Under the pieces are notes generated by a model that saw nothing but the letters and a program-made list of their open reading frames with translations, was not told where the DNA came from and made no database searches. The position numbers and the translations under genes are program-made. A stretch of 64,000 nucleotides of DNA, from IMG/VR virus record IMGVR_UViG_3300021406_000010, positions 1-64,000 of that record; one strand, 5' to 3'. The DNA comes from a virus. How positions within the stretch are numbered: position 1 is the stretch's first letter; each line of letters starts with the position of its first letter. Positions 3,001 to 62,878 of this stretch are shown one piece after another.

Positions 3001-3593
3001 ATGTCGGTGGCATGGTGCCGCATTCCCATGAGGGCGGCGGCCTCCTCGATCTGCGCGAGCCGGGCCATCGCCGGCGGCATCTCCCACGGCGGCGGCGGGG
3101 CCTCCTCCTGCGGGCCGATGTTCTCGTGCACCCACTCCTGCTGGCCCGGCTCGGCCCAGTACACTCCGGCATCGCCCTCGCCGCCGTTATAGTTCTCGTC
3201 GCGGAGGTCCTCCGGCCGTCCCCAGGTGCTGTCGGCGGTCCTGCGGGACCCGATCACGGTGATGATCCCTCCCGGGTCGGGCCGGTCATGCAGGATGGTG
3301 CCCATCTCCGGGTACCAGTAAGAGGCCATTCGCGTGTCCAGCGAGTCATCTACCTCGTCCAGCGCGGCCGTCACCCCGGAGGGCAGCAGGCCCGGCGGGA
3401 CGCCCGCGTAGGGGGAGCGCACGGCGTCGGGCAGCGGGCGCAGCTGGCTGGCGGTGTAGGCGCCCTGGCCCATGCCGCCGTCGAGGACCACCTGGTACTC
3501 CTCGACGCCCGGCGCGAATGATCCCGACACGAACAGGACGCGGCCGGGGATGTTGTCGATCGTCATCACCCGCTGTCCGACCCTGAAGTCCAT
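1..3593 (-). CDS. Large multi-domain virion-associated protein (ParB-like + SWIM zinc finger + GNAT), runs off the window edge
   Basis: Translated by hand from ATG 3593 (SD GGAGG): MDFRVGQRVMTID...; VIGDGHHRA (ParB-like), CGCPW...CSH (SWIM), ARGQGVATRMM (GNAT motif A); no stop seen before position 1; absent from ORF track. Confidence 0.8.
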   Translation of the reverse strand, partial: MDFRVGQRVMTIDNIPGRVLFVSGSFAPGVEEYQVVLDGGMGQGAYTASQLRPLPDAVRSPYAGVPPGLLPSGVTAALDEVDDSLDTRMASYWYPEMGTILHDRPDPGGIITVIGSRRTADSTWGRPEDLRDENYNGGEGDAGVYWAEPGQQEWVHENIGPQEEAPPPPWEMPPAMARLAQIEEAAALMGMRHHATDINGTHVDGHGDAPQHGTVPRAAGPDSYDERSTEGEGDPRWSQPVHGEDKEDANGATVGMYPEGISSGSGPGLPIGPFTARVPWTPAERGTLHSWHDVPTMTWGDFVPSPGFTDEDRDPPGFQAQAAEDPEERWPEMPAADLLSTRPDRTGKPEDTREEYANGEWTDVAGLLDHQQGRHRWVHHTLSSRGAREALVAQLADDYPPAALEWIRAAAVTGPQMVPLHEIDWGDRAHWTASSQPRRVTAFMEEGNGKPALVVALPDGRKVIGDGHHRAIARLLAAAAGKAAPEVPAYVAEVPSQEGPWDEMHGQQLRASSKDGTGRVPGPDAPPEEVSGFRDQVDNAVAGLGQHEHDDEGDSLEAGEPRAWPMAQAPVTEGGPAFTQGSQDGRRSRKVAAAHPEVRFHLTATWRDVMDKAKRLRAEGAVRITHVASGTVIGEVRGDHATYESGFQSYPGHRNVMAWICGCPWASYHQNERKGSTRYAGRMCSHVCAVRLEAQSRGMFGQQVTPGPTEAPHQVVVKSWPPYEGEPHAGRWRQEWLAPSASISKTSGIPGQDDEGDDGEGGLCAFSHPGDCHFPGDGQVTAWLWSRRPVGDYSVRVSELAHEERARLARANPAMSTPTHAVIATGEDGRALGSLHFQQSDDARAIRVSMLHTARAARGQGVATRMMGELTRHAASNDAWVNHGVRTRQGARWWAGFAGKDAAPHLNIHNVHPSAGWNRYFNPHDVRWDMDVNHGLDKSNPPPPDASSPHWQPASPRPGAWSRAQAFDEEGMHAYGRRVTADQANAPWGSENVSRHPPQKPYGATSPPDKDTDPGSYGPLAAPDPDNWGQIDDSVFQMPLSNVAALDDMSGQEWQEPFPYGGQVLAGGPSTSITPRDPQGIRMEESLTWPVTCSGTPVPSDPRIPELGGALAELHEEPEAALPSTTGEDPQEAGEALRQQAGIDGTMGDAQDAPHDFAEATDGSCLACGLDGSADAHCGGCSCCGGTGEHPTGHECY

Positions 3594-7928: not shown

Positions 7929-8387
7929 TCACCAGGCCGAGGCGTCGGCGGTGACCGAGGACGCGGCGAAGCTGACCGTGTTCCCGTTGGACAGGGTGAA
8001 GCTGGTGACCGCCCCCTGCAGGTACCGCAGCGGGGTCGCGGCCGAGTCCCAGACCTCGATCGCGGTGACGGCGGACCAGGCGGCGCCGGCCGTCCAGGAG
8101 ACGGCGTTGGAATTGGTGATCACCCCGCCGGACGGGGTGCCGAAGGCGGGGGACCCGAGCGTTGACCCGCCGGCGGTGTACCCGGTGGCCGACAGCTCGG
8201 TCCCGTTGGCGGTGTCCGACCCGGCGGTGGTCATCAGCCGCATCTTGAACGGCGGCGTGACAGTGAAGGCCGACCCGCCGCCGGCCCCCGGGGTGTAGGT
8301 GGTGGTGGCCGTCAGGCAGTAGAGCGCCTGCATCAGCTTGTTGACCAGGTTGCAGCCGCCCGTGTTGCGGTCCGTCATGCTAGGCAC
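7929..8387 (-). CDS. Putative virion structural (fibre-associated) protein
   Basis: GTELSATGY...NSNAVSW...VWDSA pattern typical of small phage structural proteins. Confidence 0.6.
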   Translation of the reverse strand: MPSMTDRNTGGCNLVNKLMQALYCLTATTTYTPGAGGGSAFTVTPPFKMRLMTTAGSDTANGTELSATGYTAGGSTLGSPAFGTPSGGVITNSNAVSWTAGAAWSAVTAIEVWDSAATPLRYLQGAVTSFTLSNGNTVSFAASSVTADASAW

Positions 8388-8766
8388 GGGCCGCCTCCCC
8401 GGCGAGCACGCCCAGGTCCAGGACGGTCACGGTGAGGGGGCGGCACGCCGTGCAGCCGTCGACTCCCTTGCCGCAGTGGCCTCCCGGGCACGGCTCGCCC
8501 GGCGGCGTGACCGCCTGGCACGCGGCCGGGTTGACGTCGGGGCACGGCGCCCCCCTGTGGTTCAGCCCGGCGCCGGGGCAGCTGTTGGCGGCCTGCCCGT
8601 GGTGGTGCGGCAGCGCGCAGCACCCCGCTCCGGGGGTGCACTGCAGCGCGGCGTCCAGGTCGGCCACGCGGCAGCCGTCCGCGTGGCCCGCCTCCGGGCT
8701 GCACCCGGCCGTGCACGAGACCGTGGTGCTGGCCCGGCAGCCGTTGCATGTCAGGATCAGCCGCAT
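8380..8766 (-). CDS. Cys/His-rich hypothetical protein
   Basis: 128 aa, many Cys; SD-like GGGAG upstream. Confidence 0.55.
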   Translation of the reverse strand: MRLILTCNGCRASTTVSCTAGCSPEAGHADGCRVADLDAALQCTPGAGCCALPHHHGQAANSCPGAGLNHRGAPCPDVNPAACQAVTPPGEPCPGGHCGKGVDGCTACRPLTVTVLDLGVLAGEAARA

Positions 8767-8816
8767 CGGCGACTCCCGTCGTCAGGGGGACTGCGTCACC
8801 CCTTCCGGGCCGCTGG

Positions 8817-11108
8817 TCAGCCTCCCTGGGCCGGGGCGTAGCGCTCGTAGTCGCACAGCGCGTCCCCGTCTTCCGGGCGCACCCCCAGCCGGGCGCGGAT
8901 GCCCACGTGCGGCGGGTCGGCATAGGCGCGGATCGGGTCGCCGGACGTCCAGGACCCCTTCCCGTCCCGGGCCAGGGCCTCGGACTCGGGCAGGTGCTCG
9001 ACCGGTCCCGGGACGGGAAGGCCGGCGGCGCTCGCGGTGACCCGCAGCCCCTCGGCCTCCGCCTCGTCGACCGCCCGCGCCAGCCTGGCCACCTGTCGCA
9101 CCCGGGCGGACCGGCGGAACAGCGCCCCGGGCTGCGGCATGCCCCTGCGGGCGGCGCGGGGCATCCCGTCGCGCTCCTCGTCGGACTCCGGCGGGCGCTG
9201 CGGCTCGTCGCCGGGCGGCCCTTCCCCCTCCGGCGGCGGCCCCTCCGGGGGCGCGTTCGGGTCCATGCCCTCCTCCTGCGCCTGCTGGGCCTCCTCCATG
9301 TCGGCCGGGACCGGCGCGAGGTCGGGCAGCGGCAGCGGCTGCGCGCCCATCCGGTCGATCATCAGCTGCTGCGCCGCCATCGCGGGCGGCACCCCCTCGA
9401 CCTGCGCCATGGGGGCGAAGTCGGCCATCAGGTCGGCGGGGACGGGCAGCCCGGCGTCGCGCAGCGCGATGAACGCGGCCTTCCGGGTCTCCTGCTGGGC
9501 GATGATGTCGGCGACCGCCTCGTCCTGGCACGCCTGCCGCTCCTCGTCCAGGTCAATGCCCAGTCCCCGGGTGCGGGTGCGGGCCGAGATCGGGAGGCCG
9601 GACGCCCGCAGCGCCTCGGTGAACTGCCGGACGACGTCCTCGTCCCGGAAGTTGAGGACCTTGTACTCCGGCTCGGGGACCAGCAGCCTGGGCTGCTCGG
9701 TGATCCGCTGCTCGCCGGTCTCCTCGTCGGCCTCCAGGACCTCCTCCATGACCACGTACCGGCGGCCGTTGCGCTCCTCATAGTCGTAGTGCTCCTGGGC
9801 CTCGGCGACCACCAGTGCCCGCTGCCGGAAGTGCCGCGAGATGTAGCGCTGGTAGTGCGTCATCAGCTGCTCGACCAGCTGCTTGTTCAGGGCGTCGGCG
9901 GCGTACGTCTCGCCCTCTCCCGCGCCCTGCAGGAAGGTGCGGGAGAGGCCGAACACCTGCAGGATCCTGTCCTCGATCCGCTCGAAGTCGGCGGACAGGT
10001 CCGGCATGTTCTCCCGGCCGAACACCGGCTCGATGTCGACCGCGAAGTTGTGGATCAGGGCGCGGAAGTCGCCTGCCAGGGCCGCGTCGAGGGCCAATTC
10101 GAAGTTTTCGAGGTCATCGTCGGTGGGGATCCAGGGGACCTCGGTCCCGAGGTCGGTGGCGGAGGCGCCCAGCTTGCAGAGGATGAGGGGGGTGTACAGC
10201 CGGTCGGCGATCGAGTCCATCGCCGTGTTGAGCATCTCCTGCTGCAGCATGCTCCTCATGGCCCTGGTGAGCAGCGGCAGCCCCCGCAGGTTGAAGGTGT
10301 CGCCCTTGAACTTCAGCTGCCGCAGCAGGATGTTGCTCACCGGCATGAAGGCGTTCTCGGCGGTGTAGGCGGCCAGCTCCGGGTACTCCTGGACCAGCTT
10401 GTTGTACTCCCAGGCGGGCTGGCGGGTGGTGAGGACCTGTCGGATCGTCCACGGCAGCCGGATGAAGTAGCGCGGCTCCTTCAGGAACGGCGACCGCTCC
10501 ACCTTCACGTCGTCGGGGTTGAGCAGCTCCTCATCGTCCCATATGCCCAGGTCCTCATTGAATGTCGCGAATGGCCACGCCTCCCCAGCGGTGTAGTACT
10601 CCCTCCCCATGTCCACCGTGAACTCGTGGTAGTCGAGGTTGTCCTCGCCGAAGAAGTGGTCGGTGTAGAAGTCGGCGAGCCGGGAGTCCTTGCACTTCAG
10701 GCTCATCCCGAGGACCGGGAACTTGGAGAAGATGTCGACGCAGGAGCCGACGATGGGGTCGGTCTGGTAGAGCAGCCGGCAGAAGGCCCTGACCTTAGCG
10801 AGCTCCTCGTTCTGGCTGAAGTCATAGGGGAGGTTGTTCTGCCGCCAGTAGAACAGCGGGTCTCGCGGGCGCCCTGTGGCGAACTGGATGTCGGACCCGC
10901 CACCGCCGGAGGCCCCCGCCCCGCCGGCCAGCGCGGTGCGCCGGGCCAGCATCGCCGAGCGGGCGTTGGCCCGGCGGTTCTTTATCGCCTCCCGCACGTC
11001 GTCGGTCATCTTCGGCTGGCCGTCGGCGCCCATCCCGATGCCGATGGTGGCCCCCAGCTGCCCCGCTACCGATGCCTGCCGGGCGCCCGGCACGTACGCC
11101 ACCCTCAT
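8817..11108 (-). CDS. Portal protein
   Basis: RAFCRLLYQTDPIVGSCVDIFSKFP, RGLPLLTRAMRSM, DRLYTPLILCKLG, QVFGLSRTFLQG; ATG 11108 with SD GGAGG. Confidence 0.8.
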   Translation of the reverse strand: MRVAYVPGARQASVAGQLGATIGIGMGADGQPKMTDDVREAIKNRRANARSAMLARRTALAGGAGASGGGGSDIQFATGRPRDPLFYWRQNNLPYDFSQNEELAKVRAFCRLLYQTDPIVGSCVDIFSKFPVLGMSLKCKDSRLADFYTDHFFGEDNLDYHEFTVDMGREYYTAGEAWPFATFNEDLGIWDDEELLNPDDVKVERSPFLKEPRYFIRLPWTIRQVLTTRQPAWEYNKLVQEYPELAAYTAENAFMPVSNILLRQLKFKGDTFNLRGLPLLTRAMRSMLQQEMLNTAMDSIADRLYTPLILCKLGASATDLGTEVPWIPTDDDLENFELALDAALAGDFRALIHNFAVDIEPVFGRENMPDLSADFERIEDRILQVFGLSRTFLQGAGEGETYAADALNKQLVEQLMTHYQRYISRHFRQRALVVAEAQEHYDYEERNGRRYVVMEEVLEADEETGEQRITEQPRLLVPEPEYKVLNFRDEDVVRQFTEALRASGLPISARTRTRGLGIDLDEERQACQDEAVADIIAQQETRKAAFIALRDAGLPVPADLMADFAPMAQVEGVPPAMAAQQLMIDRMGAQPLPLPDLAPVPADMEEAQQAQEEGMDPNAPPEGPPPEGEGPPGDEPQRPPESDEERDGMPRAARRGMPQPGALFRRSARVRQVARLARAVDEAEAEGLRVTASAAGLPVPGPVEHLPESEALARDGKGSWTSGDPIRAYADPPHVGIRARLGVRPEDGDALCDYERYAPAQGG

Positions 11109-11124
11109 GCGGTTGCCTCCCGCA

Positions 11125-11132
11125 CCTTCCGG
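11125..11132 (-). promoter_or_regulatory. CCGGAAGG-N4-GGAGG start-associated motif
   Basis: ccccggaaggtgcgggagg before portal ATG. Confidence 0.55.
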
Positions 11133-11146
11133 GGGTTGCAATCAAT

Positions 11147-11166
11147 GCGGGATTTATTGCTATACT
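11147..11166 (+). promoter_or_regulatory. Operator-like site variant with -10 TATACT; leaderless start
   Basis: gcgggatttattgc-tatact, ATG 11173 6 nt later. Confidence 0.55.
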
Positions 11167-11172
11167 TCAGTC

Positions 11173-11688
11173 ATGCACGGCTGGGAGCCGACAAGGCAAG
11201 GAGGCTTCCGCCGTACCCGACCGGGGGTAGCTCAGAGTCCTAAGAGCGCTGCGCGGATCACGCAGAGGACGGTTCCTGGCAAGGGCCTCCCCGGACTAAT
11301 CTTCACCTGGCGCGAGCCGCTCGGGCTGCCGGGCTGCCCCTACGTCCTCCGCTGGAGGGCGGAGGCGCCCTTCGGGTCAGTGCGGGTCCACCACTGGCTG
11401 AAGGCCGACGATGACCGCGCCTTCCACGACCACCCCTGGTGGTTCCTCACCGTCGTGCTCCGGGGCGGCTACGCTGACCGGTCGCCGGCCGGGGACGACG
11501 TCCTGCGGGCCGGGTCCGTCCGGTTCCGTCGCGCCCTGCACCGGCACACGGTCGTCCCCGGCGGGGATGGCGCCTGGACCCTGGTCATCACCGGCCCCAG
11601 GGCCAGGCCATGGGGATTCTGGCGGAACGGCAGGTTCATCAAGGCGAACAAGTGGTTCGCCAGCTTCGGGCACCACCCGTGCGGGTAA
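11173..11688 (+). CDS. Cupin-fold protein (HDHPW family); start uncertain
   Basis: HHW...FHDHPWWFLTVVLRGGY...HRH...WTLVITGP...WGFW; paralog of 39905..40360. Confidence 0.7.
   Translation: MHGWEPTRQGGFRRTRPGVAQSPKSAARITQRTVPGKGLPGLIFTWREPLGLPGCPYVLRWRAEAPFGSVRVHHWLKADDDRAFHDHPWWFLTVVLRGGYADRSPAGDDVLRAGSVRFRRALHRHTVVPGGDGAWTLVITGPRARPWGFWRNGRFIKANKWFASFGHHPCG
11221..11298 (+). ncRNA. tRNA-like cloverleaf with non-canonical loops (anticodon position GAT)
   Basis: CCGGGGG/TCCCCGG acceptor, T8A9, GCTC/GAGC D stem, CTGCG/CGCAG anticodon stem with 7-nt loop, 5-nt variable loop, GGTTC/GGGCC T stem; lacks U33, TTC and CCA. Confidence 0.55.
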
Positions 11689-12216
11689 GAACCGTTCCCA
11701 GCCCCTGGTCAGGCACCATTCTTCCCAGTTGCTGGGCTGGACGGTGCGCTCGCGGCCCGGTGGCCGGGGAAGCCCCGCCTTGTCGTGACCGTAGGCGGCC
11801 AGCGCCGAGCACACCGTCTCCCCGCGCACCAGGCCGTGATCGGGCAGCCACAATTCCCCCAGGTGCAGGTCCTCGGCGGCGTCGGCGGCGATGGCCTCCC
11901 AGTCGTACCGGTCGCCCAGCATGCCGCGCATGGTGACGGTCACAAGGCGGCGCTGCTCATCCGTCTTCGGCTGCGCCGCGTTCGACGTGGTCCAGGAGGA
12001 GGCCAGGTAGGCCGCCAGGTCTACCCAGCCCACCCCGCCGGGACGGCCCTCGACGCCCCACAGGGTACCGTTCGCGTCCGCGTGGTCCGCGACGGCGACG
12101 TGGTTGGCGACGTTCGGCTTGTCCTCCAGCGCCTCGCCGAGGCGGATCATCTCCGCCGCCCATCCCGTGGTCCGCACTACCAGGACGTCACCGGGCTGCA
12201 CCGCGAGGGCGGTCAC
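11377..12216 (-). CDS. Permuted papain-like NlpC/P60 (YaeF/YiiX-like) protein
   Basis: QPGDVLVV...NHVAV...YDW...VCSALAAY; last ~100 codons run antisense over the cupin. Confidence 0.6.
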   Translation of the reverse strand: MTALAVQPGDVLVVRTTGWAAEMIRLGEALEDKPNVANHVAVADHADANGTLWGVEGRPGGVGWVDLAAYLASSWTTSNAAQPKTDEQRRLVTVTMRGMLGDRYDWEAIAADAAEDLHLGELWLPDHGLVRGETVCSALAAYGHDKAGLPRPPGRERTVQPSNWEEWCLTRGWERFLPARVVPEAGEPLVRLDEPAVPPESPWPGPGAGDDQGPGAIPAGDDRVPVQGATEPDGPGPQDVVPGRRPVSVAAPEHDGEEPPGVVVEGAVIVGLQPVVDPH

Positions 12217-12374
12217 GGAGACCCGCTGCCCTGGCCCGGCTGCCCGGTGCCCCCGGGCAGCGCCTTCAGGTCAGTGACGTTCCGGCACCCGTCGCACCTG
12301 ACCCAGGCGCACTGGGGGTTCTGGCAATGGTCAGTGACCTTCCTGGACCCGCAGGTGCCGCACTGCCTGTCCAT
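12213..12374 (-). CDS. Small zinc-finger protein
   Basis: CGTC..HC..C..CDGC; SD GAGGAGG. Confidence 0.55.
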   Translation of the reverse strand: MDRQCGTCGSRKVTDHCQNPQCAWVRCDGCRNVTDLKALPGGTGQPGQGSGSP

Positions 12375-12412
12375 CGCCCCTCCTCTCGTGCTTCCCTGGC
12401 GGGAGCCAGATG

Positions 12413-12426
12413 GCAATGTTCCCTGT
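12413..12426 (-). promoter_or_regulatory. RCAR-N6-YTGY operator-like site
   Basis: acagggaacattgc on minus strand just downstream of a TATGAT -10-like box. Confidence 0.45.
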
Positions 12427-12449
12427 AATGATCATAGCGGCAGGGCGCC

Positions 12450-12914
12450 TCAGCCGTAGTGCCGGAAGTGGACGCTGTTCTTCTGGACGTCGCTCCACTG
12501 CGTGGCATAAACAGGGCCGAGGCCGTAGGGGTCGCCGCTCTCGGCGGCGCGCTGCATCTGGCCGCCCATGAACCTCACCACGTCGGGGTGCCGCAGTTCC
12601 CGCAGCGCCCTGTCCCCCACCTTCTCGTCGTCGTCTCCCAGGTCGGACCATCCCGTGGCGCCGGTGGGATCGCCCCCGTGATGCGCCATCATCGTCCAGC
12701 GGTTTCGCTCCGGGTCCAGGTGGAAGCCGAGCTTGTGCCCTGACTCCAGGTGCGCGTGATCGTCCGGCCAGTGCTCCTCGCCCGGGTACAGCCCCCGGCT
12801 CCGCAGGTCCTCCTGCACCCGGTGCGTGCGCGCCTGCAGCTCGCTGAACGGGATCGCCCAGTTCCCCCGGTGGCCCCGGTAGTGCGCCGGGTATGCGTTG
12901 TCGCGGTAGATCAT
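12450..12914 (-). CDS. 'ESGH' paralog family member 9
   Basis: LESGH...W...HHGGDPTG...DLGDDDEKV...QMQRAAESGDPYG. Confidence 0.75.
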   Translation of the reverse strand: MIYRDNAYPAHYRGHRGNWAIPFSELQARTHRVQEDLRSRGLYPGEEHWPDDHAHLESGHKLGFHLDPERNRWTMMAHHGGDPTGATGWSDLGDDDEKVGDRALRELRHPDVVRFMGGQMQRAAESGDPYGLGPVYATQWSDVQKNSVHFRHYG

Positions 12915-12923
12915 CGGCGTCCC

Positions 12924-13334
12924 TTAACCGTAGTGCCGGAAGGCGTGCGAGGGGTCCTGCTGCCACCTCTGGTCCATCGGGCTGGTGAGGCCATGCGGGT
13001 CCCCGGCCTCGGTCGCCCGCCGCCACTGGTCGCCCATGGCCTTCACCACGTCGCGGTGCCGCAGCTCAGCCTTCAGCCGCTCGGCGAACTGGCTGTCGTC
13101 AGCGCCGAGGTCAGACCTTATCCACGACCCGGTGGGGTCGCCGCCGTGACGGATTGAGAGGCTCCACCGCCTCTCGCCGGACTCCGGGTCCTGGTCGAGG
13201 GAGTAGTGGACATAGTGGCCGGACTCCAGCGGCCCGACCATCGGCCACCCGTCGCGCTCGGCCTCGGGGCTGAGGAGCCGGTGCCGGGCCAGCTGCCGCT
13301 TCACGTCGCTATAGCGCCCGGGGATTCCCGTCAC
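12924..13334 (-). CDS. 'ESGH' paralog family member 8
   Basis: LESGH...RHGGDPTG...DLGADD...QWRRATEAGDPHG. Confidence 0.75.
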   Translation of the reverse strand: MTGIPGRYSDVKRQLARHRLLSPEAERDGWPMVGPLESGHYVHYSLDQDPESGERRWSLSIRHGGDPTGSWIRSDLGADDSQFAERLKAELRHRDVVKAMGDQWRRATEAGDPHGLTSPMDQRWQQDPSHAFRHYG

Positions 13335-13834
13335 CGTTCCTCCCCGCTGCCCCGCAGCGCGACGCCCTCGGCGTCGTGGTGCACGTACTGCATGGTCCCC
13401 CGTCGCCTGCGCGGCCCCTGCTCACCCGTGCCCCGCATCTGCCCCGCCATCTCGCGGGTCACGTGACGGCAGCCCAGCTCCCGCTGCACCAGCCTGGGCA
13501 CCTCCTCATCGCGGGTGCCCAGGTTCACGTGCACCATAACCGGCGTGGCACGGTCGTCGCCGGGGTGCCAGACGTTCATCACCCACCCCTGGTCCTGGCG
13601 GGACAGCCCGACGCCCACGTGGTGCCCGGTCTCAAGATCGAAGCTCGGGGCGTCCACGGCGTAGCCATGGGAATCCCTGAAGTGCACCGGGAACCCGGCG
13701 GCGTGCATCTGGTCGCGGACGGACCGCAGCCGCCTGACCTGGTCGCGCTGGGTCAGGGAATCGCCGGGGAACAGCTTGTCGCTGCCCCGGAACCCGCCGT
13801 CATCGGACGCGAAGTGCCGGATCAGGTCATTCAC
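13331..13834 (-). CDS. 'ESGH' paralog family member 7
   Basis: N-terminal LIRHFAS; LETGH...WHPGD...NLGTRDEEV. Confidence 0.75.
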   Translation of the reverse strand: MNDLIRHFASDDGGFRGSDKLFPGDSLTQRDQVRRLRSVRDQMHAAGFPVHFRDSHGYAVDAPSFDLETGHHVGVGLSRQDQGWVMNVWHPGDDRATPVMVHVNLGTRDEEVPRLVQRELGCRHVTREMAGQMRGTGEQGPRRRRGTMQYVHHDAEGVALRGSGEER

Positions 13835-14253
13835 CAGTCATCCTCATGAGAGCGGCGCTGGCCCCAGGGGTCATCGTCGGTGGCCAGGGGGCCACTCGAC
13901 CTGCGCACGTAGTCGAGGAACTCCGGGCTGCGGTAGCCTTCCGCGAGGCGGCGCGGGACGTCGGAGTCGACGGGGCCGAGGGGCATCCGGTACTCCATGC
14001 TGTCATCGCCGTTCACCCACCGGTCCTCCATGGGCCCGCGCGGCGGGGTGACGGCCGCCGCCCACTGGCCGAGGGCGTGATGCCAGGAAATGCCCGCCAG
14101 GTGGCCGCTCTCCATCGTCTGGCGGCGGGACAGCAGCCGCTGCCGCTTGACCTCGGCCAGGATCGCGTCCCGGCGCTCCTGGTGCTCGCGCATGCTTCCC
14201 GGTCGCCCGGACGCGGACGCGAAGTGCCGGATGAGGTCATCGCCGCGCGCCAT
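13831..14253 (-). CDS. 'ESGH' paralog family member 6
   Basis: LIRHFAS; MESGH...PLGPVDSDV. Confidence 0.7.
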   Translation of the reverse strand: MARGDDLIRHFASASGRPGSMREHQERRDAILAEVKRQRLLSRRQTMESGHLAGISWHHALGQWAAAVTPPRGPMEDRWVNGDDSMEYRMPLGPVDSDVPRRLAEGYRSPEFLDYVRRSSGPLATDDDPWGQRRSHEDDW

Positions 14254-14642
14254 TAGCCGTCCCTGAAGTCATGGAAGAAGTGACTGACGCCATGCCACTT
14301 CGACCGGGAGTGCAGGCGCTTGTCCCCTCGCGGGTCTCCCGCCCCGGCGGCGCGCTGCCATTGGTCCCCGAGGGCCCTCACGAAGGCGGGGCGGCGCAAC
14401 TGGTCCGCGACGCGGTCCGCCACCCCCTCGTCTTCCCGGCCGAGGTCCGCGATCACGGCGGACCCGCTGGGGTCGCCGGGATGCCAGGCCTGCATCTCCC
14501 AGCCGCCGCCCCACTTGCCGATGCCGTAGTTGTGGCCGGACTCCAGCTGGTTCAGGTCCGGGTCAGACGGGTGCTGGCGCCCGATCCCCTGGCCGCGCAG
14601 GTGCTGCAGGATCATGGCCTCCCTCGCCGGCTCGTCGCCCAT
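14253..14642 (-). CDS. 'ESGH' paralog family member 5
   Basis: LESGH...WHPGDPSG...DLGREDEGV...QWQRAAGAGDPRG. Confidence 0.75.
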   Translation of the reverse strand: MGDEPAREAMILQHLRGQGIGRQHPSDPDLNQLESGHNYGIGKWGGGWEMQAWHPGDPSGSAVIADLGREDEGVADRVADQLRRPAFVRALGDQWQRAAGAGDPRGDKRLHSRSKWHGVSHFFHDFRDG

Positions 14643-15064
14643 TAGCCGAACCTCCTCGGCCAGGAGGGGTCGTCATCACGGGGATGCGCCATCTGCTCGC
14701 GCATCGCCCGCATGACGTCCCCGTGGCCGAGCCACTTCCTGGCCATGGCCCCGATGGCGTCCGGGTCACCGCCGAGGTCGGCCAGTATCACCCGGGGATT
14801 CCGGAATCGTGAAGGCCCCTCGCCTGTCCGCCCTATCGTGGGGTCCGGCTCGCGGGTCACCCACATGCGCCAGGTGCCGCGCTCGTGGTTGTAGGGGACG
14901 ATGATGTGGTGGCCGGTCTCGGTGCGCATCTCGTCCGACAGCCCGGCCGCGCGCAGCGAGGCGGCAGCCCGCTCGCGCCGGGCGTCCTCGCCGCCGGCGG
15001 CGAAGTGCCGGATGAGGTTCTCGCCGAACCACCCGTCGTCGGGAGGAACGCGTCCCCGTCCCAT
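14642..15064 (-). CDS. 'ESGH' paralog family member 4
   Basis: Start ATG 15064 coupled to upstream stop; LIRHFAA; TETGH...DLGGDPDAI. Confidence 0.7.
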   Translation of the reverse strand: MGRGRVPPDDGWFGENLIRHFAAGGEDARRERAAASLRAAGLSDEMRTETGHHIIVPYNHERGTWRMWVTREPDPTIGRTGEGPSRFRNPRVILADLGGDPDAIGAMARKWLGHGDVMRAMREQMAHPRDDDPSWPRRFG

Positions 15065-15543
15065 CAGCGCTCCCCGTAGTGCGGGCCTGTCAGCCGCCTG
15101 CTGTGCAGCGCCGCGCCGCCATGGTCCACGACGCGCCCGTCCGGCTCGTCGCCGGACGGGTCGCCGTTGCCGAGCGCCCGCTTCCACTGGGCGGCTAGCC
15201 GCCCGACGACATTCGGGTGGGTCATGAAGTGCCGGAACCGGTCCGGCACCCGGGCGTCGTCCTCGCCCAGGTCGGAGGTGATCACCTCATTCGTCGGGTC
15301 TCCGGCGTGCGCAATGCTCACTTGCCAGCGGCGGGTATGCGAGTGCAGCCAAACGGAGAAGTTATGCCCCAACTCAGTACGGAACCCCTCAAGTCCTTCA
15401 GGGTAACCGCTGATGAGCCGCTGCCCGCGCAGGGCATCGTATACAGCGCTCTCGCGAGCAGCTCGCTCTCGGTTCGGGACACGGCCGGACGATCCAGAGA
15501 GCCTGTGCCTTTCCTCCTCGGGGGAGATATCCCACTCGCTCAC
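15064..15543 (-). CDS. 'ESGH' paralog family member 3
   Basis: TELGH...AHAGDPT...DLGEDDARV...QWKRALGNGDPSG. Confidence 0.75.
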   Translation of the reverse strand: MSEWDISPEEERHRLSGSSGRVPNRERAARESAVYDALRGQRLISGYPEGLEGFRTELGHNFSVWLHSHTRRWQVSIAHAGDPTNEVITSDLGEDDARVPDRFRHFMTHPNVVGRLAAQWKRALGNGDPSGDEPDGRVVDHGGAALHSRRLTGPHYGER

Positions 15544-15562
15544 CAGTCGCCCCGTACTCGCG

Positions 15563-16381
15563 TCAGCCCGCGTAGTAGGACGGGCTGCGCTTCCAGTCGC
15601 TGCGCGCCATGGTGCTCGCGTGGGCGGCGTCGCGGTGCCCGTCGTGGGCGGGCACGGTAATCACGTGGTTAGCCTGCTGCACCGTGACCATCGCCTCCTG
15701 GCCCGGCTCGATCGGCTCCCCGCATCCCGCGCAGGCGTGCTGGCTCTGGTTCCTGGCTGCTTCCATGGTCTTCATCTTAGCAAGGAAAGCTGTATCTTCG
15801 CGACCCGCCTCGCGGCGCAGCGCCGACAGCACCCGGGGATCATGACCGGAGGCGTGCGCGGCGAGGTGGCGGATGAGCTGGCCCTCGGTCAGCGGCTGGC
15901 CCTGCAGGCCCCGGTAGAGGGCGCCCTCCTTCTTGCCCTTCGGCGGCGGCTTCTTCTCGCCTTTGCCCTTCGGGAAGGGGGAGCCCTCGCTATCGTCATC
16001 GTCACCCGGCGACGGGGGCGCGCCCTCGCCGCCGGGACCAGCCTCCTCATCATCGCCAGGGGGCATGCCGCCTTCCTCGCCGCCTTCCTCCGGGGGCATG
16101 CCGCCGCCCACGGGCATCCCGTCCGGGCCGATCATGCCCGGATCCATGAGGCCGCCGTCGGGGCCGACGTCAGAAGGAGCGCCTGGGCCGCCGGGCATCT
16201 GGGGGGCGCCCGGGAAGGCCGGCTGGACGCGGACGATGTAGTTCTGTCCGCAGAAGGAGCACGCGATCGTCCCGTCACTCCTGCCCACCACTTGCCCTGA
16301 GCCGCAAAACGGACAATGAGACGTGATCAGGGGATCGCCTGGGTCGTGGGCCAACCTGGTGCCGATGCCACGTGCCGCCAT
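15563..16381 (-). CDS. Zinc-ribbon head-region protein, with a possibly separate C-terminal unit starting at 15766
   Basis: HCPFCGSGQVVGRSDGTIACSFC; P/G/E-rich linker; SD GGAGG. Confidence 0.7.
   Translation of the reverse strand: MAARGIGTRLAHDPGDPLITSHCPFCGSGQVVGRSDGTIACSFCGQNYIVRVQPAFPGAPQMPGGPGAPSDVGPDGGLMDPGMIGPDGMPVGGGMPPEEGGEEGGMPPGDDEEAGPGGEGAPPSPGDDDDSEGSPFPKGKGEKKPPPKGKKEGALYRGLQGQPLTEGQLIRHLAAHASGHDPRVLSALRREAGREDTAFLAKMKTMEAARNQSQHACAGCGEPIEPGQEAMVTVQQANHVITVPAHDGHRDAAHASTMARSDWKRSPSYYAG
15774..15793 (-). promoter_or_regulatory. Operator-like site with -10 TAAGAT inside a CDS
   Basis: acagctttccttgc-taagat, in-frame ATG 15766 7 nt later. Confidence 0.65.
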
Positions 16382-16394
16382 GATGCCTCCTGGT

Positions 16395-16402
16395 CCTTCC
16401 GG
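16395..16402 (-). promoter_or_regulatory. CCGGAAGG-N4-GGAGG start-associated motif
   Basis: ccccggaaggaccaggagg before ATG 16381. Confidence 0.55.
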
Positions 16403-16405
16403 GGA

Positions 16406-16699
16406 TCATGGCATCATGTCGCGCAGGCGCCGCATGATCCCCGGCTCGCACAGCTTCCGGCCTAGCACCCTCGCAACCGCGTCATCGTCATGGCCCAGGT
16501 GCAGGTGCACGACAAGGTCGCGGCCAGGCCAGGTGATGTTGGCCCACCACCACTCGTGCCGGGGATCCCTGCGGCCATGACCCATCCCGACCTGCACGTG
16601 GTGGCCGGACTCCAGCTTCTGCCGCTGGCTGGTGATCCCGGCCGCCAGGATCGAGTCCCACACGCGCACTAGCCGGGCCATGTCGCCGTCCCTGGTCAC
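16406..16699 (-). CDS. 'ESGH' paralog family member 2 (short form)
   Basis: LESGHHVQV...WWWANIT...LHLGHDDDAV...EPGIMR. Confidence 0.7.
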   Translation of the reverse strand: MTRDGDMARLVRVWDSILAAGITSQRQKLESGHHVQVGMGHGRRDPRHEWWWANITWPGRDLVVHLHLGHDDDAVARVLGRKLCEPGIMRRLRDMMP

Positions 16700-17007
16700 G
16701 CCATCAGCCTCCGCATCGCCCTCATCGTGCCCGGCTCGGACAGCAGCCGGGCCAGCTCGGCGGCCACCTGCCCGTCATCACGGCCCAGGAACAGGGTGAC
16801 CACCCCCTCGCGGTCCTGGTGGGTGACGTTCACCCACCAGGACCATGCCTGGGGGCCGTCCGGCCCGGGGCTGAGGAAGACCTGCAGGTGGTGGCCGGAC
16901 TCGGTGCGCATCGACGGGCCGCACAGCCCGGCGGCCACGACCGAGCCCCAGACAGCCCAGACCCTGAGCAGCGTGCGCGCGTAGAAGGCGTGGTCGCTCC
17001 AGCTCAT
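16696..17007 (-). CDS. 'ESGH' paralog family member 1 (short form)
   Basis: TESGHHLQV...WWVNVT...LFLGRDDGQV...EPGTMR. Confidence 0.7.
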   Translation of the reverse strand: MSWSDHAFYARTLLRVWAVWGSVVAAGLCGPSMRTESGHHLQVFLSPGPDGPQAWSWWVNVTHQDREGVVTLFLGRDDGQVAAELARLLSEPGTMRAMRRLMA

Positions 17008-17306
17008 GACCCGAAGCCTCCCAGGGCCTCGCCGACCAGTGCATGGAGCAGGCGCAGGTGCTTCTGCGCCAGCTGGCCGACCGCCTGCGCCCGCTCCAGG
17101 CCGGGCCGGATGTCTGCCTGCGGGTCGGCCGCCAGCCGGTCGCGGGCCGTCCGGATGAGCGCCGCAGCCTCGTCCAGCCCGGCAGCGGGGCCGCTGACGT
17201 ACGGCGCGAGGCCGGGGACGGCCAGGGCCAGCTCGCGGGCGGCTGCCGAGCTGCGGGCGAGAAGGGCCGCTGACCTGTCCAGGCCCTCCGGCGTGAACTC
17301 GCTCAC
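17004..17306 (-). CDS. Hypothetical helical protein
   Basis: GTG start overlapping upstream TGA. Confidence 0.5.
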   Translation of the reverse strand: MSEFTPEGLDRSAALLARSSAAARELALAVPGLAPYVSGPAAGLDEAAALIRTARDRLAADPQADIRPGLERAQAVGQLAQKHLRLLHALVGEALGGFGS

Positions 17307-17533
17307 GGCTCGTCCCTCGCCAGCATCATGCCGGGCCACGCCTGCGCCATGGGCACCAGCCGGTAGCCGGGAGCGCACCAGTCGCCTTGCGGGCACGGCC
17401 TGCCGAAGCCGTCCTCGGCGGGCCCTTCCGGGCAGTGCGAGGCGACCAGCTCGCCCAGCAGGATGCCCGTCTCCCCTCTCGGCAGGTACACGAACACGTT
17501 GCCCGGCCCGCTGCTAGTGGTGATGACGTCCAC
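17303..17533 (-). CDS. Hypothetical protein
   Basis: GTG 17533 with SD-like GAGGGGAG; divergent from plus-strand block. Confidence 0.45.
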   Translation of the reverse strand: MDVITTSSGPGNVFVYLPRGETGILLGELVASHCPEGPAEDGFGRPCPQGDWCAPGYRLVPMAQAWPGMMLARDEP

Positions 17534-17552
17534 TCCGCTCCCCTCGCTCAAT

Positions 17553-17572
17553 GCAGCTTTCCTTGCTATCAT
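17553..17572 (+). promoter_or_regulatory. Operator-like site with -10 TATCAT
   Basis: gcagctttccttgc-tatcat at the divergent junction. Confidence 0.7.
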
Positions 17573-17597
17573 AGCGGACGAGGAAGGGAGCCATCCA

Positions 17598-17765
17598 GTG
17601 GCGACGATAGCGGAGCAGATCGCGGCCAAGCAGGCCGAGATCGCGGCGGTGGCCGAGCGGACGCGGGCCGCGTACCACGCCTGGCAGGACCTGGACCAGG
17701 CGCATAACGCGCTGTGCGAAGAGCTGCGGGAGCTGAAGAGGCGCCAGCGGGAAGGCGGGCAGTGA
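17598..17765 (+). CDS. Small coiled-coil hypothetical protein
   Basis: GTG with SD after promoter motif. Confidence 0.55.
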   Translation: MATIAEQIAAKQAEIAAVAERTRAAYHAWQDLDQAHNALCEELRELKRRQREGGQ

Positions 17766-18451
17766 TGGCCCGCGAGCAGATGATGCTCCCCGACGCGGTC
17801 GCCGCTTACCTGGACGACTGCGCGGTGGCGCACGCGGCCGGGTGGCGCGCCGAGCCGCACGCCACGGTGGAGGAGCTCTGCCAGGTCTTCAGCATGGTGC
17901 CATCGGCGATGATGGCGGACTGCCTCGCTGGCCTGGCGGCCAGCGGGGACGCGGAGGTCGGCCTGGTGGCCGGGGAGTGGAGGTCACGGTGAGCGAGGAG
18001 CGGCACCTGGCCGTGCGCGTGCGCGACCCGGGGAGCAGCCGGTGGGAGTGGGTGGGCCATCACGGCCAGGGGCTGACCCGGCGCGTGGACGAGACATTCA
18101 CCTACCCGGACGACTGCAGGCGGGTGGCCGATGAGGTCGCCAGTCTGGCCCGCGCGCATGGCCTGATCGCTGAGGTCGTAGACCTGGACCAGGCAACGGC
18201 GGCCGGACCCCGGGGCAAATGGCGAAACTGGAGGTCGCGGTGAGCGAGAGGCAGGCGCAGGTGCCCCCGGGGACGGACATCACGCAGCCGATGGCGCAGC
18301 ACGTCGCGCTGGTCATCACCGGGATCCTGGTCGGCATCAGCGAGGCCGACCCGGCGGGGGCGGGCCAGGAGCTGCTGGAGACGCTCGGCCTCAAGGCGGT
18401 CAGGCGCAGGATCCGCTCGCGCTACGCCCATGGCGGGGACAGGACGGGATC

Positions 18452-18781
18452 GTGATGGGCGGCCTGAAGGGCGTCCAGCCGGGCGACGAGCTCATCGTCA
18501 GCGACCCGCGCTCTCCCCGGCGCAGGCCGAACAGGGCCACGGTCGCCTCAGTCGGCCGGACCTGGGTGACCGCGAGGGGCGGCCTCCGCTACCGGATCGA
18601 CGACGGGCGCGACGAGTGCGGGGCCACCGTAGCAGAGGTCCCGGCGGACTACGAGGAGCGGATGGCCTGCCACGCGCTCCGCGAGGACCTCCGGGAGGCG
18701 GGAATCCTGACGGGCGGCGCCGAGCTGTCCCGCCCGCAGCTGGAGGCGATCCTCGCGATCGTCAAGGAAGGAGCGCGATGA
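18452..18781 (+). CDS. Hypothetical protein (SH3/KOW-like)
   Basis: VQPGDELIV...ATVASVGRTWVT. Confidence 0.55.
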   Translation: MMGGLKGVQPGDELIVSDPRSPRRRPNRATVASVGRTWVTARGGLRYRIDDGRDECGATVAEVPADYEERMACHALREDLREAGILTGGAELSRPQLEAILAIVKEGAR

Positions 18782-21198: not shown

Positions 21199-21525
21199 AT
21201 GACCGCGCGCAACGCGCCCCGGAGGTTCATCCGCCTCCGCAACGGGCGGGCCATGGGCTGGAACGGCGAGCCGCACTGGGCGCTTGCGATGGCCGAGCGG
21301 GCGGCCATCGCGCAGATGAGCCATCCCGTCGAGTGCTGCAAGTGCGGTGCCGTCTACGACCTGGGCAAGATCGAGGTGACCGGGCACTACCTGGACTGCA
21401 CCATGTGGCGCACCCCGTGCTGCCGGGCGACAGTCGACGACCGGGGCAACTTCGGCGGCTTCGGCCAGCCGGCCTACCAGGACATCCCGAGGCCGCCGCG
21501 CCGGGGAGATGGCCCGGGTGAGTAA
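21199..21525 (+). CDS. Zinc-binding hypothetical protein
   Basis: CCKCGAVYDLGKIEV...DCTMWRTPCC. Confidence 0.6.
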   Translation: MTARNAPRRFIRLRNGRAMGWNGEPHWALAMAERAAIAQMSHPVECCKCGAVYDLGKIEVTGHYLDCTMWRTPCCRATVDDRGNFGGFGQPAYQDIPRPPRRGDGPGE

Positions 21526-21775
21526 CGGCCACGGGGACGCGACCCTGGTGACCAGGACCGAGACGGTCATCGAGGGACTGCCCGCCATAGGCGGCTGGCT
21601 CGACCATGACTCTCCCGGTCCGGTCATACACTTCCACCGCATGTTCAGCGAGCTGCCGCGCGAGGGCCTGGCCGGGCGGCGGATGGAGCTGCGCGCCGGC
21701 GGCAGGACATGGGTGTACGTGATCACGGACTATGACCCGGCTACCGGGGAGTTCACGGCGCAATGGCCGGACTGA
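21509..21775 (+). CDS. 'WPD' paralog 1
   Basis: WVYVITDYDPATGEFTAQWPD*. Confidence 0.65.
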   Translation: MARVSNGHGDATLVTRTETVIEGLPAIGGWLDHDSPGPVIHFHRMFSELPREGLAGRRMELRAGGRTWVYVITDYDPATGEFTAQWPD

Positions 21776-22038
21776 TGCCCGAGCCGTGGGAGGTGAGGCT
21801 CCACGTCGGCGGAGGGCGCGGGTACACGATCATCGCGGACGAGCCATTCGACGGCAGGCTCCCCAACCCGTCGGCGACGATAGTGATCCGGCCCTCCCAG
21901 CTGCAGCCAGAGCACAGGGACATGACCGTGTTCGCCGGCCAGCCGCTGGAGGTCACGTACCAGGGGAAGCGCTGGGTGTACGTCGTGCACGCGGTTGACC
22001 CGGAGGCCGGGCTGGTGCACGCCCGGTGGCCAGACTAG
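21775..22038 (+). CDS. 'WPD' paralog 2
   Basis: WVYVVHAVDPEAGLVHARWPD*. Confidence 0.65.
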   Translation: MPEPWEVRLHVGGGRGYTIIADEPFDGRLPNPSATIVIRPSQLQPEHRDMTVFAGQPLEVTYQGKRWVYVVHAVDPEAGLVHARWPD

Positions 22039-22051
22039 CGAGGAGGACGGC

Positions 22052-22339
22052 ATGACGGAAGACGAGGAGGCGCGGTCGGTCGCCATCGGCGGCCGGGACG
22101 GCAACGGGCGGCTGTTCCTCGACATCGAGAACGGCTGGCCATTTGCGATGGAGCCGGAGATCCAGGTAGACGGCTTCATCGACGCGCTGATCGCCTACAG
22201 CCCGGAATGCTACGCGGGTGACCCGGCGGCGCTGGTCGGCGAGCCACTCGTCCTGACGGTGAACGGGCGCCGCAGCGTGTACGAGCTGACGGCCTGGGAC
22301 CCGGCCGGGAGGTCCTTCACGGCGCGGTGGCCAGACTAG
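22052..22339 (+). CDS. 'WPD' paralog 3
   Basis: SVYELTAWDPAGRSFTARWPD*. Confidence 0.65.
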   Translation: MTEDEEARSVAIGGRDGNGRLFLDIENGWPFAMEPEIQVDGFIDALIAYSPECYAGDPAALVGEPLVLTVNGRRSVYELTAWDPAGRSFTARWPD

Positions 22340-62856: not shown

Positions 62857-62870
62857 AGCCGCCTCCCGCA

Positions 62871-62878
62871 ACTTCCGG
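62871..62878 (-). promoter_or_regulatory. CCGGAAG(T)-N4-GGAGG start-associated motif
   Basis: cccggaagttgcgggagg before ATG 62856. Confidence 0.5.

Follow-up and report, generated by a model that had tools for sequence, protein, structure and literature searches.

The stretch of DNA studied here, called the window below, is the first 64 kb (64,000 nucleotides, nt) of a virus record of 166,488 bases that is rated complete (IMG/VR record IMGVR_UViG_3300021406_000010). We describe a group of nine small related genes on its minus strand at 12450-17007, together with the zinc-ribbon (Zn-ribbon) gene that lies among them. Counted from the side of the portal gene they are p1 (12450-12914, 154 amino acids (aa), with a C-terminal FRHYG), p2 (12924-13334, 136 aa), p3 (13331-13834, 167 aa), p4 (13831-14253, 140 aa), p5 (14253-14642, 129 aa), p6 (14642-15064, 140 aa), p7 (15064-15543, 159 aa) and the two short genes p8 (16406-16699, 97 aa) and p9 (16696-17007, 103 aa). 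They include a p1/p2 and a p8/p9 subtype. All nine open reading frames (ORFs) have G+C of the coding type (0.81-0.96 at third codon positions), adjoining genes mostly overlap by one or four bases, and all are co-oriented with the portal gene. The gene p6 was taken from its ATG; its ORF is open to 15187, where a GTG start would overlap p7 by 124 nt. P0015, a protein of 287 aa from a relative, joins a p7-like and a p6-like domain and reads through exactly this upstream extension (15064-15187), which could be explained by an indel in that relative or by a site of frameshifting in p6/p7 here.

An earlier note on this DNA had taken the nine genes for divergent paralogs with shared motifs. Alignment, genome search and leave-one-out profiles, each profile built from the other eight copies, bear this out. 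The profiles recovered every copy, at expectation values (E) of 6e-29 for p1, 1e-25 for p2, 5e-18 for p3, 9e-10 for p4 (the most divergent copy), 2e-25 for p5, 7e-14 for p6, 4e-25 for p7, 2e-15 for p8 and 6e-14 for p9. They found no further ORF at E <= 10 among the genome's 1,580 other six-frame ORFs with a length of 60 aa or more, and the genome search with the family gave exactly nine copies. Of the shared motifs, E-x-G-H, W and L-G are invariant across the nine-copy alignment. The nine genes are true paralogs of an alpha/beta domain of about 110 aa, here termed the ESGH domain. The note had not recognised the family, and no known family was found in our searches either: the nine copies match nothing in Pfam or PHROG, and the family profile has no match among PDB sequences (best E 0.28). 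The isoelectric point (pI) is 6.2-6.9 in seven copies, 8.4 in p6 and 10.0 in p8, and the histidine content of the ESGH proteins is 3.9-8.4%.

The arrangement is also as had been described, with seven contiguous genes and two more beyond the Zn-ribbon gene (15563-16381, minus strand, 272 aa), which separates p7 from p8. The Zn-ribbon protein consists of an N-terminal CPFC...C.FC ribbon, an acidic Pro/Gly-rich linker, a basic patch and a conserved C-terminal motif that bears a short tag, and it has no MuF match. The portal gene (8817-11141, minus strand; phrog_2833, E 3e-136) lies downstream of the array at a distance of 1.3 kb, so the array is upstream of the portal as claimed, but not "just" upstream, since two ORFs (12213-12416 and 11377-12216) stand between them.

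The source phage is a large, uncultured soil myovirus of high G+C content (about 72% over the 166,488-base record) and distant kin of Rhodococcus, Gordonia and Mycobacterium cluster C phages. The portal proteins of Rhodococcus phages E3 and Finch, Gordonia phage Skog and the Mycobacterium cluster C (Bixzunavirus) myoviruses share 35-38% identity with its own. A PHROG scan of the rest of the genome placed the tail sheath (124821-126443), baseplate and virion proteins, the major capsid protein (156390-157418) and a protein of 1331 aa whose N-terminal part is the head-maturation (prohead) protease (158775-162770). Pfam terminase PF03237 and capsid PF05065 had no match in the genome, and the capsid protein came via PHROGs instead. 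Both record ends (1-3593 and 165495-166268, both minus strand) match the same PHROGs (2940 and 30974), so the record is circularly permuted and cuts a gene of about 1450 aa, in which a GNAT-like stretch (PF00583, E 2e-4) was seen. On the circular map the minus-strand order is array with Zn-ribbon gene, portal, large protein, protease protein and capsid, which puts the array at the head end of the structural region. The "head operon" of the earlier note is therefore loosely right: array and portal run the same way, but it takes about 20 kb more of the circular map to reach the capsid and protease genes. On its other side the array adjoins the point, at about 17.0-17.5 kb, where small plus-strand genes take over (a divergent early/late region, 17007-17463). 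A promoter and terminator scan of 8000-18500 gave nothing exceeding the shuffle level.

The family is rare: an exhaustive profile search over 1.84 billion representative proteins returned 79 representatives at E <= 1e-3, of which 65 are shorter than 200 aa. Two of the 79 are eukaryotic AP2-repeat proteins (P0073, E 1e-6; P0082, E 3e-4) and were treated as false positives. Comparison of the 64-sequence family with 14 AP2 repeats by hhalign gave only 27% probability over 23 columns, the fold matches contained no AP2 structure, and one of the 64 members matched PF00847 (E 0.03); kinship with AP2 was rejected, and the resemblance is read as a common hairpin pattern. None of the 64 family members has a credible Pfam match. 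PF12699, which is head paralog family A of phiKZ and SPN3US, matches neither the nine copies nor the 64 members.

In other phages the ESGH domain also occurs within long proteins. P0014 (1139 aa) and P0016 (947 aa) have five ESGH domains each, P0017 (1185 aa) has four and P0019 (1017 aa) has three, and P0033, P0050 and P0057 are likewise multi-domain. In seven of ten multi-domain representatives the Zn-ribbon protein precedes the one to five ESGH domains: P0014, P0019, P0033, P0050 and P0057 open with it, and P0016 and P0017 start inside its Pro/Gly-rich linker. The same fusion of Zn-ribbon protein and ESGH domain is found in the DNA of locus L021, and in locus L023 at least six ESGH ORFs stand directly before a portal gene whose product is 75% identical to the one here, so that in all three settings, with the portal 1.3 kb downstream in the window, ESGH genes are set among virion genes. 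P0014 contains at least two other domain types beside ESGH in one long phage polypeptide, and P0017, P0019, P0033 and P0057 are similar. One of these other domains is a Cys/His-rich module, found in P0014 (residues 332-559) and P0017 (767-922), which matches residues 369-571 of a giant "polyvalent" protein of 1289 aa in the window (54689-58558) at E 6e-36 and 2e-33, respectively. By this shared module, the ESGH domains belong to the module pool of the giant proteins.

Two further features of these long proteins were seen. The Zn-ribbon proteins of L021 (1373-3361) and P0019 carry an insert of about 330 residues within the first Cys motif, between CPF and CGSGQ. With its homing-endonuclease-like motifs and its end ...N|C it looks by eye like an intein. 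A His-rich module, L-R-x-H-[LM]-x3-H-G ... H-E-x2-H, is present in P0017, P0041, P0057, P0066 and the loci L017 (9980-11005) and L018 (9965-11392); it also stands near the end of a second giant protein of the window (58309-62871, 1520 aa) and recurs in the extended Zn-ribbon proteins of relatives. It is a candidate zinc-binding mini-domain or zincin-like site.

A short tag with the consensus hydrophobic-R-[KRH]-x-A-[ST] is shared by several of these proteins. Pattern search found it near the N-terminus of three array genes, as LIRHFAS at residues 4-10 of p3 (13805-13825, minus strand; context M-N-D-L-I-R-H-F-A-S), LIRHFAS at residues 7-13 of p4 (14215-14235, minus strand; D-D-L-I-R-H-F-A-S) and LIRHFAA at residues 17-23 of p6 (14996-15016, minus strand; E-N-L-I-R-H-F-A-A). 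In the Zn-ribbon protein it is LIRHLAA, within the conserved C-terminal motif (15857-15877, minus strand). Across the six frames of the genome there are eight matches to the pattern [LIVM][LIVM]xH[FL][AE][AES]: in p3, p4 and p6, in the Zn-ribbon protein, at three module junctions within the 1520-aa giant and in one non-coding-like frame. A looser pattern, [LIVM]R[RKH]xA[AST] within the first 30 residues, was found among the 186 called genes (a list without p6) only in p3, p4 and the prohead-protease protein. The latter starts with [LI]-R-K-[YQ]-A-[ST], followed about 20 residues on by a second copy, [IL]-[RV]-K-[AST]-A-H. Both copies are present in five of five phages, namely this one and all four complete relatives, and the occurrence of the tag at the protease N-terminus played no part in deriving the tag patterns.

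In the fused proteins the joints between domains read S-L-R-R-(R)-A-A or [RK]-T-A-[AST], usually followed by acidic residues. These patterns were about tenfold over shuffles in the fused proteins (19 observed against 1.8 expected, and 9 against 1.1), and [RK]-T-A-[AST] was seen 11 times in the giants of the window against 1.1 expected; the figures are generous, as the patterns were partly derived from sequences later counted. Among 27 tag matches in fused proteins, 24 lie in linkers or at most 8 residues from a domain edge; in 10 cases an ESGH domain follows at a distance of 9-27 residues. The tag opens at least 15 of the 64 solo family members, typically as M-x-W-D-x-I-R-[RK]-A-A-[SA]-G. In the model of p3 the tag region has a predicted local distance difference test score (pLDDT) of about 50 and lies outside the globular part.

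The AlphaFold2 model of p2, made with the 64-sequence alignment, has a mean pLDDT of 91.4 and a predicted template modelling score of 0.84. It runs from two N-terminal helices through four antiparallel strands to two helices, a loop and a short last strand, and the model of p3 (pLDDT 87.3) has the same order. The predicted ESGH fold is thus a helix, a four-stranded sheet and two helices, often with a late fifth strand. Foldseek against PDB and BFVD gave nothing at E <= 1e-3, and its top rows (YopH and metallo-beta-lactamases, template modelling (TM) scores 0.15-0.24) were dismissed as noise. In an exhaustive structural alignment DR_1245 came first for both models (Z 5.7 for p2, 5.8 for p3), and AmyR of the YbjN family was in the top five for both. 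For p2, the class I type III secretion chaperones SchA, ExsC, SicP, Spa15, AvrPphF-ORF1, SycT, SycN/YscB, InvB, SpcS and SigE followed at Z 4.4-5.2. Among the top 31 rows for p3, 13 were chaperone-like or YbjN-like (Z 4.2-5.8, with 78-97 aligned residues at a root-mean-square deviation of 2.8-4.3 A). Over both models the matches cover 78-98 aligned residues at a deviation of about 3-4 A, many chaperones lie at Z 4.2-5.5, and all Z values stay below the 7-8 that unrelated best matches typically reach with this aligner. We take the likeness to class I chaperones as a weak lead on the fold class of the models, not as a family assignment.

The same likeness would suit ESGH proteins that act as escorts, binding the tag or a nearby stretch of the giant proteins, keeping these fit for loading and handing them to the portal or prohead, in the manner of class I chaperones of type III secretion, and one genome here does hold many paralogs together with many tagged cargo modules. 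We consider such a role distinctly unlikely. The Z values are below those of unrelated best matches, the 64 members have no Pfam chaperone or YbjN family among their matches at E <= 1, and the agreement with the chaperones and the YbjN/DR_1245 fold concerns size and the order helix, antiparallel sheet, helices, whereas ESGH has four consecutive strands and then two helices and shows no sequence relation to them. Class I chaperones are generally acidic, but the ESGH proteins, with pI 6.2-10, are not. It would also be odd for a chaperone to be itself tagged and fused into long proteins, and there are relatives that have the giant proteins and lack ESGH.

Conservation among the 64 sequences reaches 90% only at a G, an H, an L and another G, which argues against an enzyme. 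A small metal-dependent enzyme or self-processing domain with a site made of E-x-G-H and H-x-G-D, for example a peptidase cutting the neighbouring tag, would account for the conserved E, G and H, the frequent H-x-G-D-P, the His-rich composition and the tags at fixed distance before domains. Such a site would have, however, one polar residue (H40 of p2) conserved at the 90% level, p4, p6 and p8 have other residues in place of the second His and the Asp, and no hydrolase was matched structurally above noise, so we regard this explanation as highly improbable. Prediction of a p2 homodimer from two copies, with the 64-row alignment, scored 0.00 against a mark of 0.42 and speaks neither way. Matches in the ESM Atlas were not used: the best feature score was 0.79, under the meaningful level, and an Imm25 immunity row (TM 0.59) rests on an Atlas model of pLDDT 0.53.

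We used the Zn-ribbon protein as a query and retrieved 11 loci from IMG/VR, ten of them not near-identical to the window (portal 64-84% identical) and one near-identical contig of 8.9 kb, L010. In all ten relatives the portal gene follows the Zn-ribbon gene, with no more than three unrelated small genes, or else an extended Zn-ribbon protein, in between. No ESGH domain was found in the fetched flanks of these ten loci, nor anywhere in five related records, four of which are rated complete and have portals 64-76% identical to this one; the domain is thus unneeded for building this kind of virion. L010 has seven ESGH copies, so that copy number, which the earlier note had proposed to compare, varies from nine here to seven in L010 and zero in the four complete relatives. 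The array is an accessory insertion with fast turnover.

The identity of L010 to the window is 98.9% over the stretch that runs from the portal to p4 and falls to 81-88% from p7 leftwards; L010 lacks 754 bases holding p5 and most of p6. Its p1-p3 proteins are identical to those here, and the others are 98.5% (p4), 63% (p7), 84% (Zn-ribbon protein), 76% (p8) and 88% (p9) identical. The step in identity between p4 and p7 indicates a recombination breakpoint inside the array. Between the window and L010 the ratio of nonsynonymous to synonymous substitution rates (dN/dS) is 0.49 for p7, 0.53 for p8, 0.53 for p9, 0.33 for the Zn-ribbon protein and 0.09 for the portal, so the array genes are constrained, far more relaxed than the portal, and without any dN/dS > 1. 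The paralog subtypes are old: p3-, p6-, p8/p9- and p1/p2-like copies are each kept, separately, in other distant metagenomic phages. The proposal of duplication with rapid divergence is therefore right about the turnover of the locus and the relaxed constraint (about 0.5 against 0.09 in the portal), but recent duplication is too simple a picture, since the subtypes are kept in distant phages and no dN/dS exceeds 1. A search of 50,697 phage records with the 8.6-kb region, p2 and the Zn-ribbon protein gave no match. The p3-type pattern was in no prokaryote genome of a collection of 185,579 species, and within IMG/VR it was found only in L010.

This turnover bears on whether the ESGH proteins could be internal head proteins with a physical role and no host target, such as filler, core or scaffold-like proteins that organise DNA or ejection proteins, comparable to inner-body proteins or to the head paralogs of giant phages. 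Portal context and shared tag would agree with it, and there is precedent in the head paralog families of 2 to 20 copies described for giant phages (PMC5694885). Against these points, four complete relatives have the same head genes and no ESGH domain, and the near-identical phage L010 does without p5 and p6, so that a purely structural role seems unlikely to us.

The reading that we favour, tentatively and with rather less than even confidence, is that the ESGH proteins are solo modules of polyvalent proteins, loaded into the prohead via the tag, ejected, and acting as non-enzymatic binders. It builds on an accessory family whose fold class is predicted, on its fusions, on the module shared with the giant and on where the tag occurs; packaging, cleavage, ejection and binding are the steps that it would add. 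The ESGH domain is one of the small modules from which this clade of large actinophage myoviruses builds its long polyvalent proteins, encoded singly here on both sides of the Zn-ribbon gene and fused behind the Zn-ribbon protein in other relatives. The tag would direct ESGH proteins into the prohead and would probably be trimmed there, like the capsid-targeting sequence of T4 internal proteins. The proteins would then leave the head together with the DNA and, in the new host, may bind proteins of the host or of rival elements without catalysis. A binder is suggested because there is no conserved catalytic set, the surfaces are variable and the predicted fold class is protein-binding. Packaging gains indirect support, we infer, from the fusion to the Zn-ribbon protein, the module shared with the giant and the tag shared with the prohead-protease protein.

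Several observations weigh against this reading, whose weakest links are packaging and the target. Only three of nine copies (p3, p4 and p6) have the tag; p1, p2, p5, p8 and p9 are without it, and p7 is doubtful. The tag is short, its enrichment is overestimated to the degree that the patterns came from the sequences counted, and neither the capsid protein nor the portal fits the tag patterns used. It resembles the first helix of the His-rich module in relatives (L-R-x-H-L-x-x-x-H-G) and could be a remnant of a fold instead of a signal. The match of the models to known protein-binding folds is weak (best Z 5.7-5.8), the old subtypes and dN/dS < 1 do not show an arms race, and the array lies beside the divergent early/late switch, so early or middle expression is possible.

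Some of these points would fit better with cytoplasmic accessory proteins, for anti-defence or host take-over, that are made after infection and never packaged; the portal-side site would then be an insertion hot spot and the tag a processing or docking motif unrelated to the head. The array is inserted at a variable spot, where relatives carry unrelated small genes or Zn-ribbon extensions, and it adjoins the switch to small plus-strand genes; six of the nine copies lack a clear tag, and turnover with relaxed constraint suits conflict genes. We nevertheless find such proteins a doubtful explanation, with some real chance of being right, as relatives have the domains fused to the portal-adjacent Zn-ribbon protein and in one polypeptide with the module of the giant, the same tag opens the prohead-protease protein in all five phages, and every copy has the orientation of the portal, with stop and start codons that overlap.

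A bolder extension would make the tag a portable address for the prohead, a "cargo-loading code" carried by the protease, the giant enzyme strings and the solo modules, with chaperone-like ESGH domains as its readers or escorts, anchored at the portal via the Zn-ribbon protein. That would amount to a chaperone and effector logic like that of type III secretion within a virus head, and we think it very unlikely.

Packaged solo modules, as we favour them, would have relatives in several known systems. Polyvalent proteins of phages and conjugative elements, as treated in passages of Iyer et al. 2017 (PMC5512222), have small domains that are strung together or stand solo beside virion genes, are fused to head-associated anchors and are thought to be delivered with the DNA. 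The ESGH domain is alike in occurring both strung together and solo beside virion genes and in its fusion to a putative head-associated anchor, and its genome has giant proteins of the same type. It differs in its anchor, which is the Zn-ribbon protein upstream of the portal and not a MuF or portal fusion, and in matching no Pfam family, a distinction drawn by Pfam and without direct comparison to the LPD alignments of that paper. Term searches of that paper brought up no repeated linear tag at junctions and N-termini. MuF and SPP1 gp7-type proteins (in the same passages) are, like the Zn-ribbon protein, conserved, small and portal-adjacent, with variable C-terminal modules; the Zn-ribbon protein lies upstream of the portal, not downstream, and its head association is putative.

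According to PMC7411985, the T4 internal proteins carry an N-terminal capsid-targeting sequence of 10-20 residues, which gives entry to the prohead and is removed by the prohead protease, and IPI-III and Alt are small accessory proteins ejected with the DNA. We infer a likeness to these from the tag, but ESGH proteins have no sequence relation to them, and their putative signal is on three of nine copies and also internal, between fused domains. The head paralogs of unknown function in giant phages, which range from 2 to 20 members between related phages (PMC5694885), among them SPN3US family B (20 members) and family A (pfam12699), resemble the ESGH genes as diverged arrays of small-protein paralogs with variable copy number. 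They are a different fold family in phiKZ-like phages, whereas ours is in a 166-kb actinophage, and their virion presence has been shown, whereas that of the ESGH proteins is putative.

Arrays of accessory head or ejected proteins and solo polyvalent-protein modules were thus known already; the unnamed domain family, the Zn-ribbon fusion platform and the shared tag are new. For large actinobacterial myoviruses they provide a confidently foldable family without a name (pLDDT 87-91), a Zn-ribbon platform beside the portal and a shared tag. Proteins that a phage carries in its head and injects before its genes are expressed serve as first-strike weapons against the defences of the host, and to our knowledge few injected-protein families are known outside T4, P1, N4 and phiKZ-like phages. 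If the tag is a loading or cleavage signal, it would give a sequence rule to predict the injected proteome of this clade from genomes alone, and a handle for loading heads of this kind with foreign proteins. Otherwise, the family remains a clean case of an accessory array that turns over fast at a defined site of insertion.

Of the two ORFs between the array and the portal, the one next to p1 (12213-12416, minus strand, 67 aa) is Cys-rich, C-x2-C ... H-C-x-N-P-x-C-x-W-V-x-C-x2-C. By eye, without a score, it resembles a gene of 58 aa between the Zn-ribbon gene and the portal in locus L014 (4500-4676), and may represent a further small zinc protein accompanying the portal. In cultured distant relatives a gene of about 120 aa directly upstream of the portal opens with C-x-C/C-x2-C ... 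C-x2-C (L036 5508-5864, Finch gene 14; L037 5395-5763, Bigswole gp236), and having a small zinc protein before the portal may be a more general trait among these actinophage myoviruses.

The other ORF (11377-12216, minus strand, 279 aa) was inserted together with the array: it is present in L010 and absent from the other relatives and from L023. It has no Pfam match and a weak match to phrog_1128 (E 0.005). It may be a permuted papain-like enzyme, as a candidate only. A role of this ORF as protease of the tag was considered and set aside, as it is not generally linked to the tag, being absent from L023 and from relatives with fused proteins or none. Its last 100 codons or so overlap a convergent plus-strand ORF (10876-11688) whose end reads protein-like (HDHPWW...), and one of the two is probably shorter than listed.

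At the other end of the array, L010 (894-937) is without 332 bases, window positions 16977-17308, that span most of an ORF of 130 aa upstream of p9 (17004-17396); this deletion adds doubt that the ORF is a gene. Further along, among the early genes on the plus strand, three adjoining small genes (21509-22339; 88, 91 and 114 aa) share the ending ...A/T-x-W-P-D and look like a further set of paralogs.

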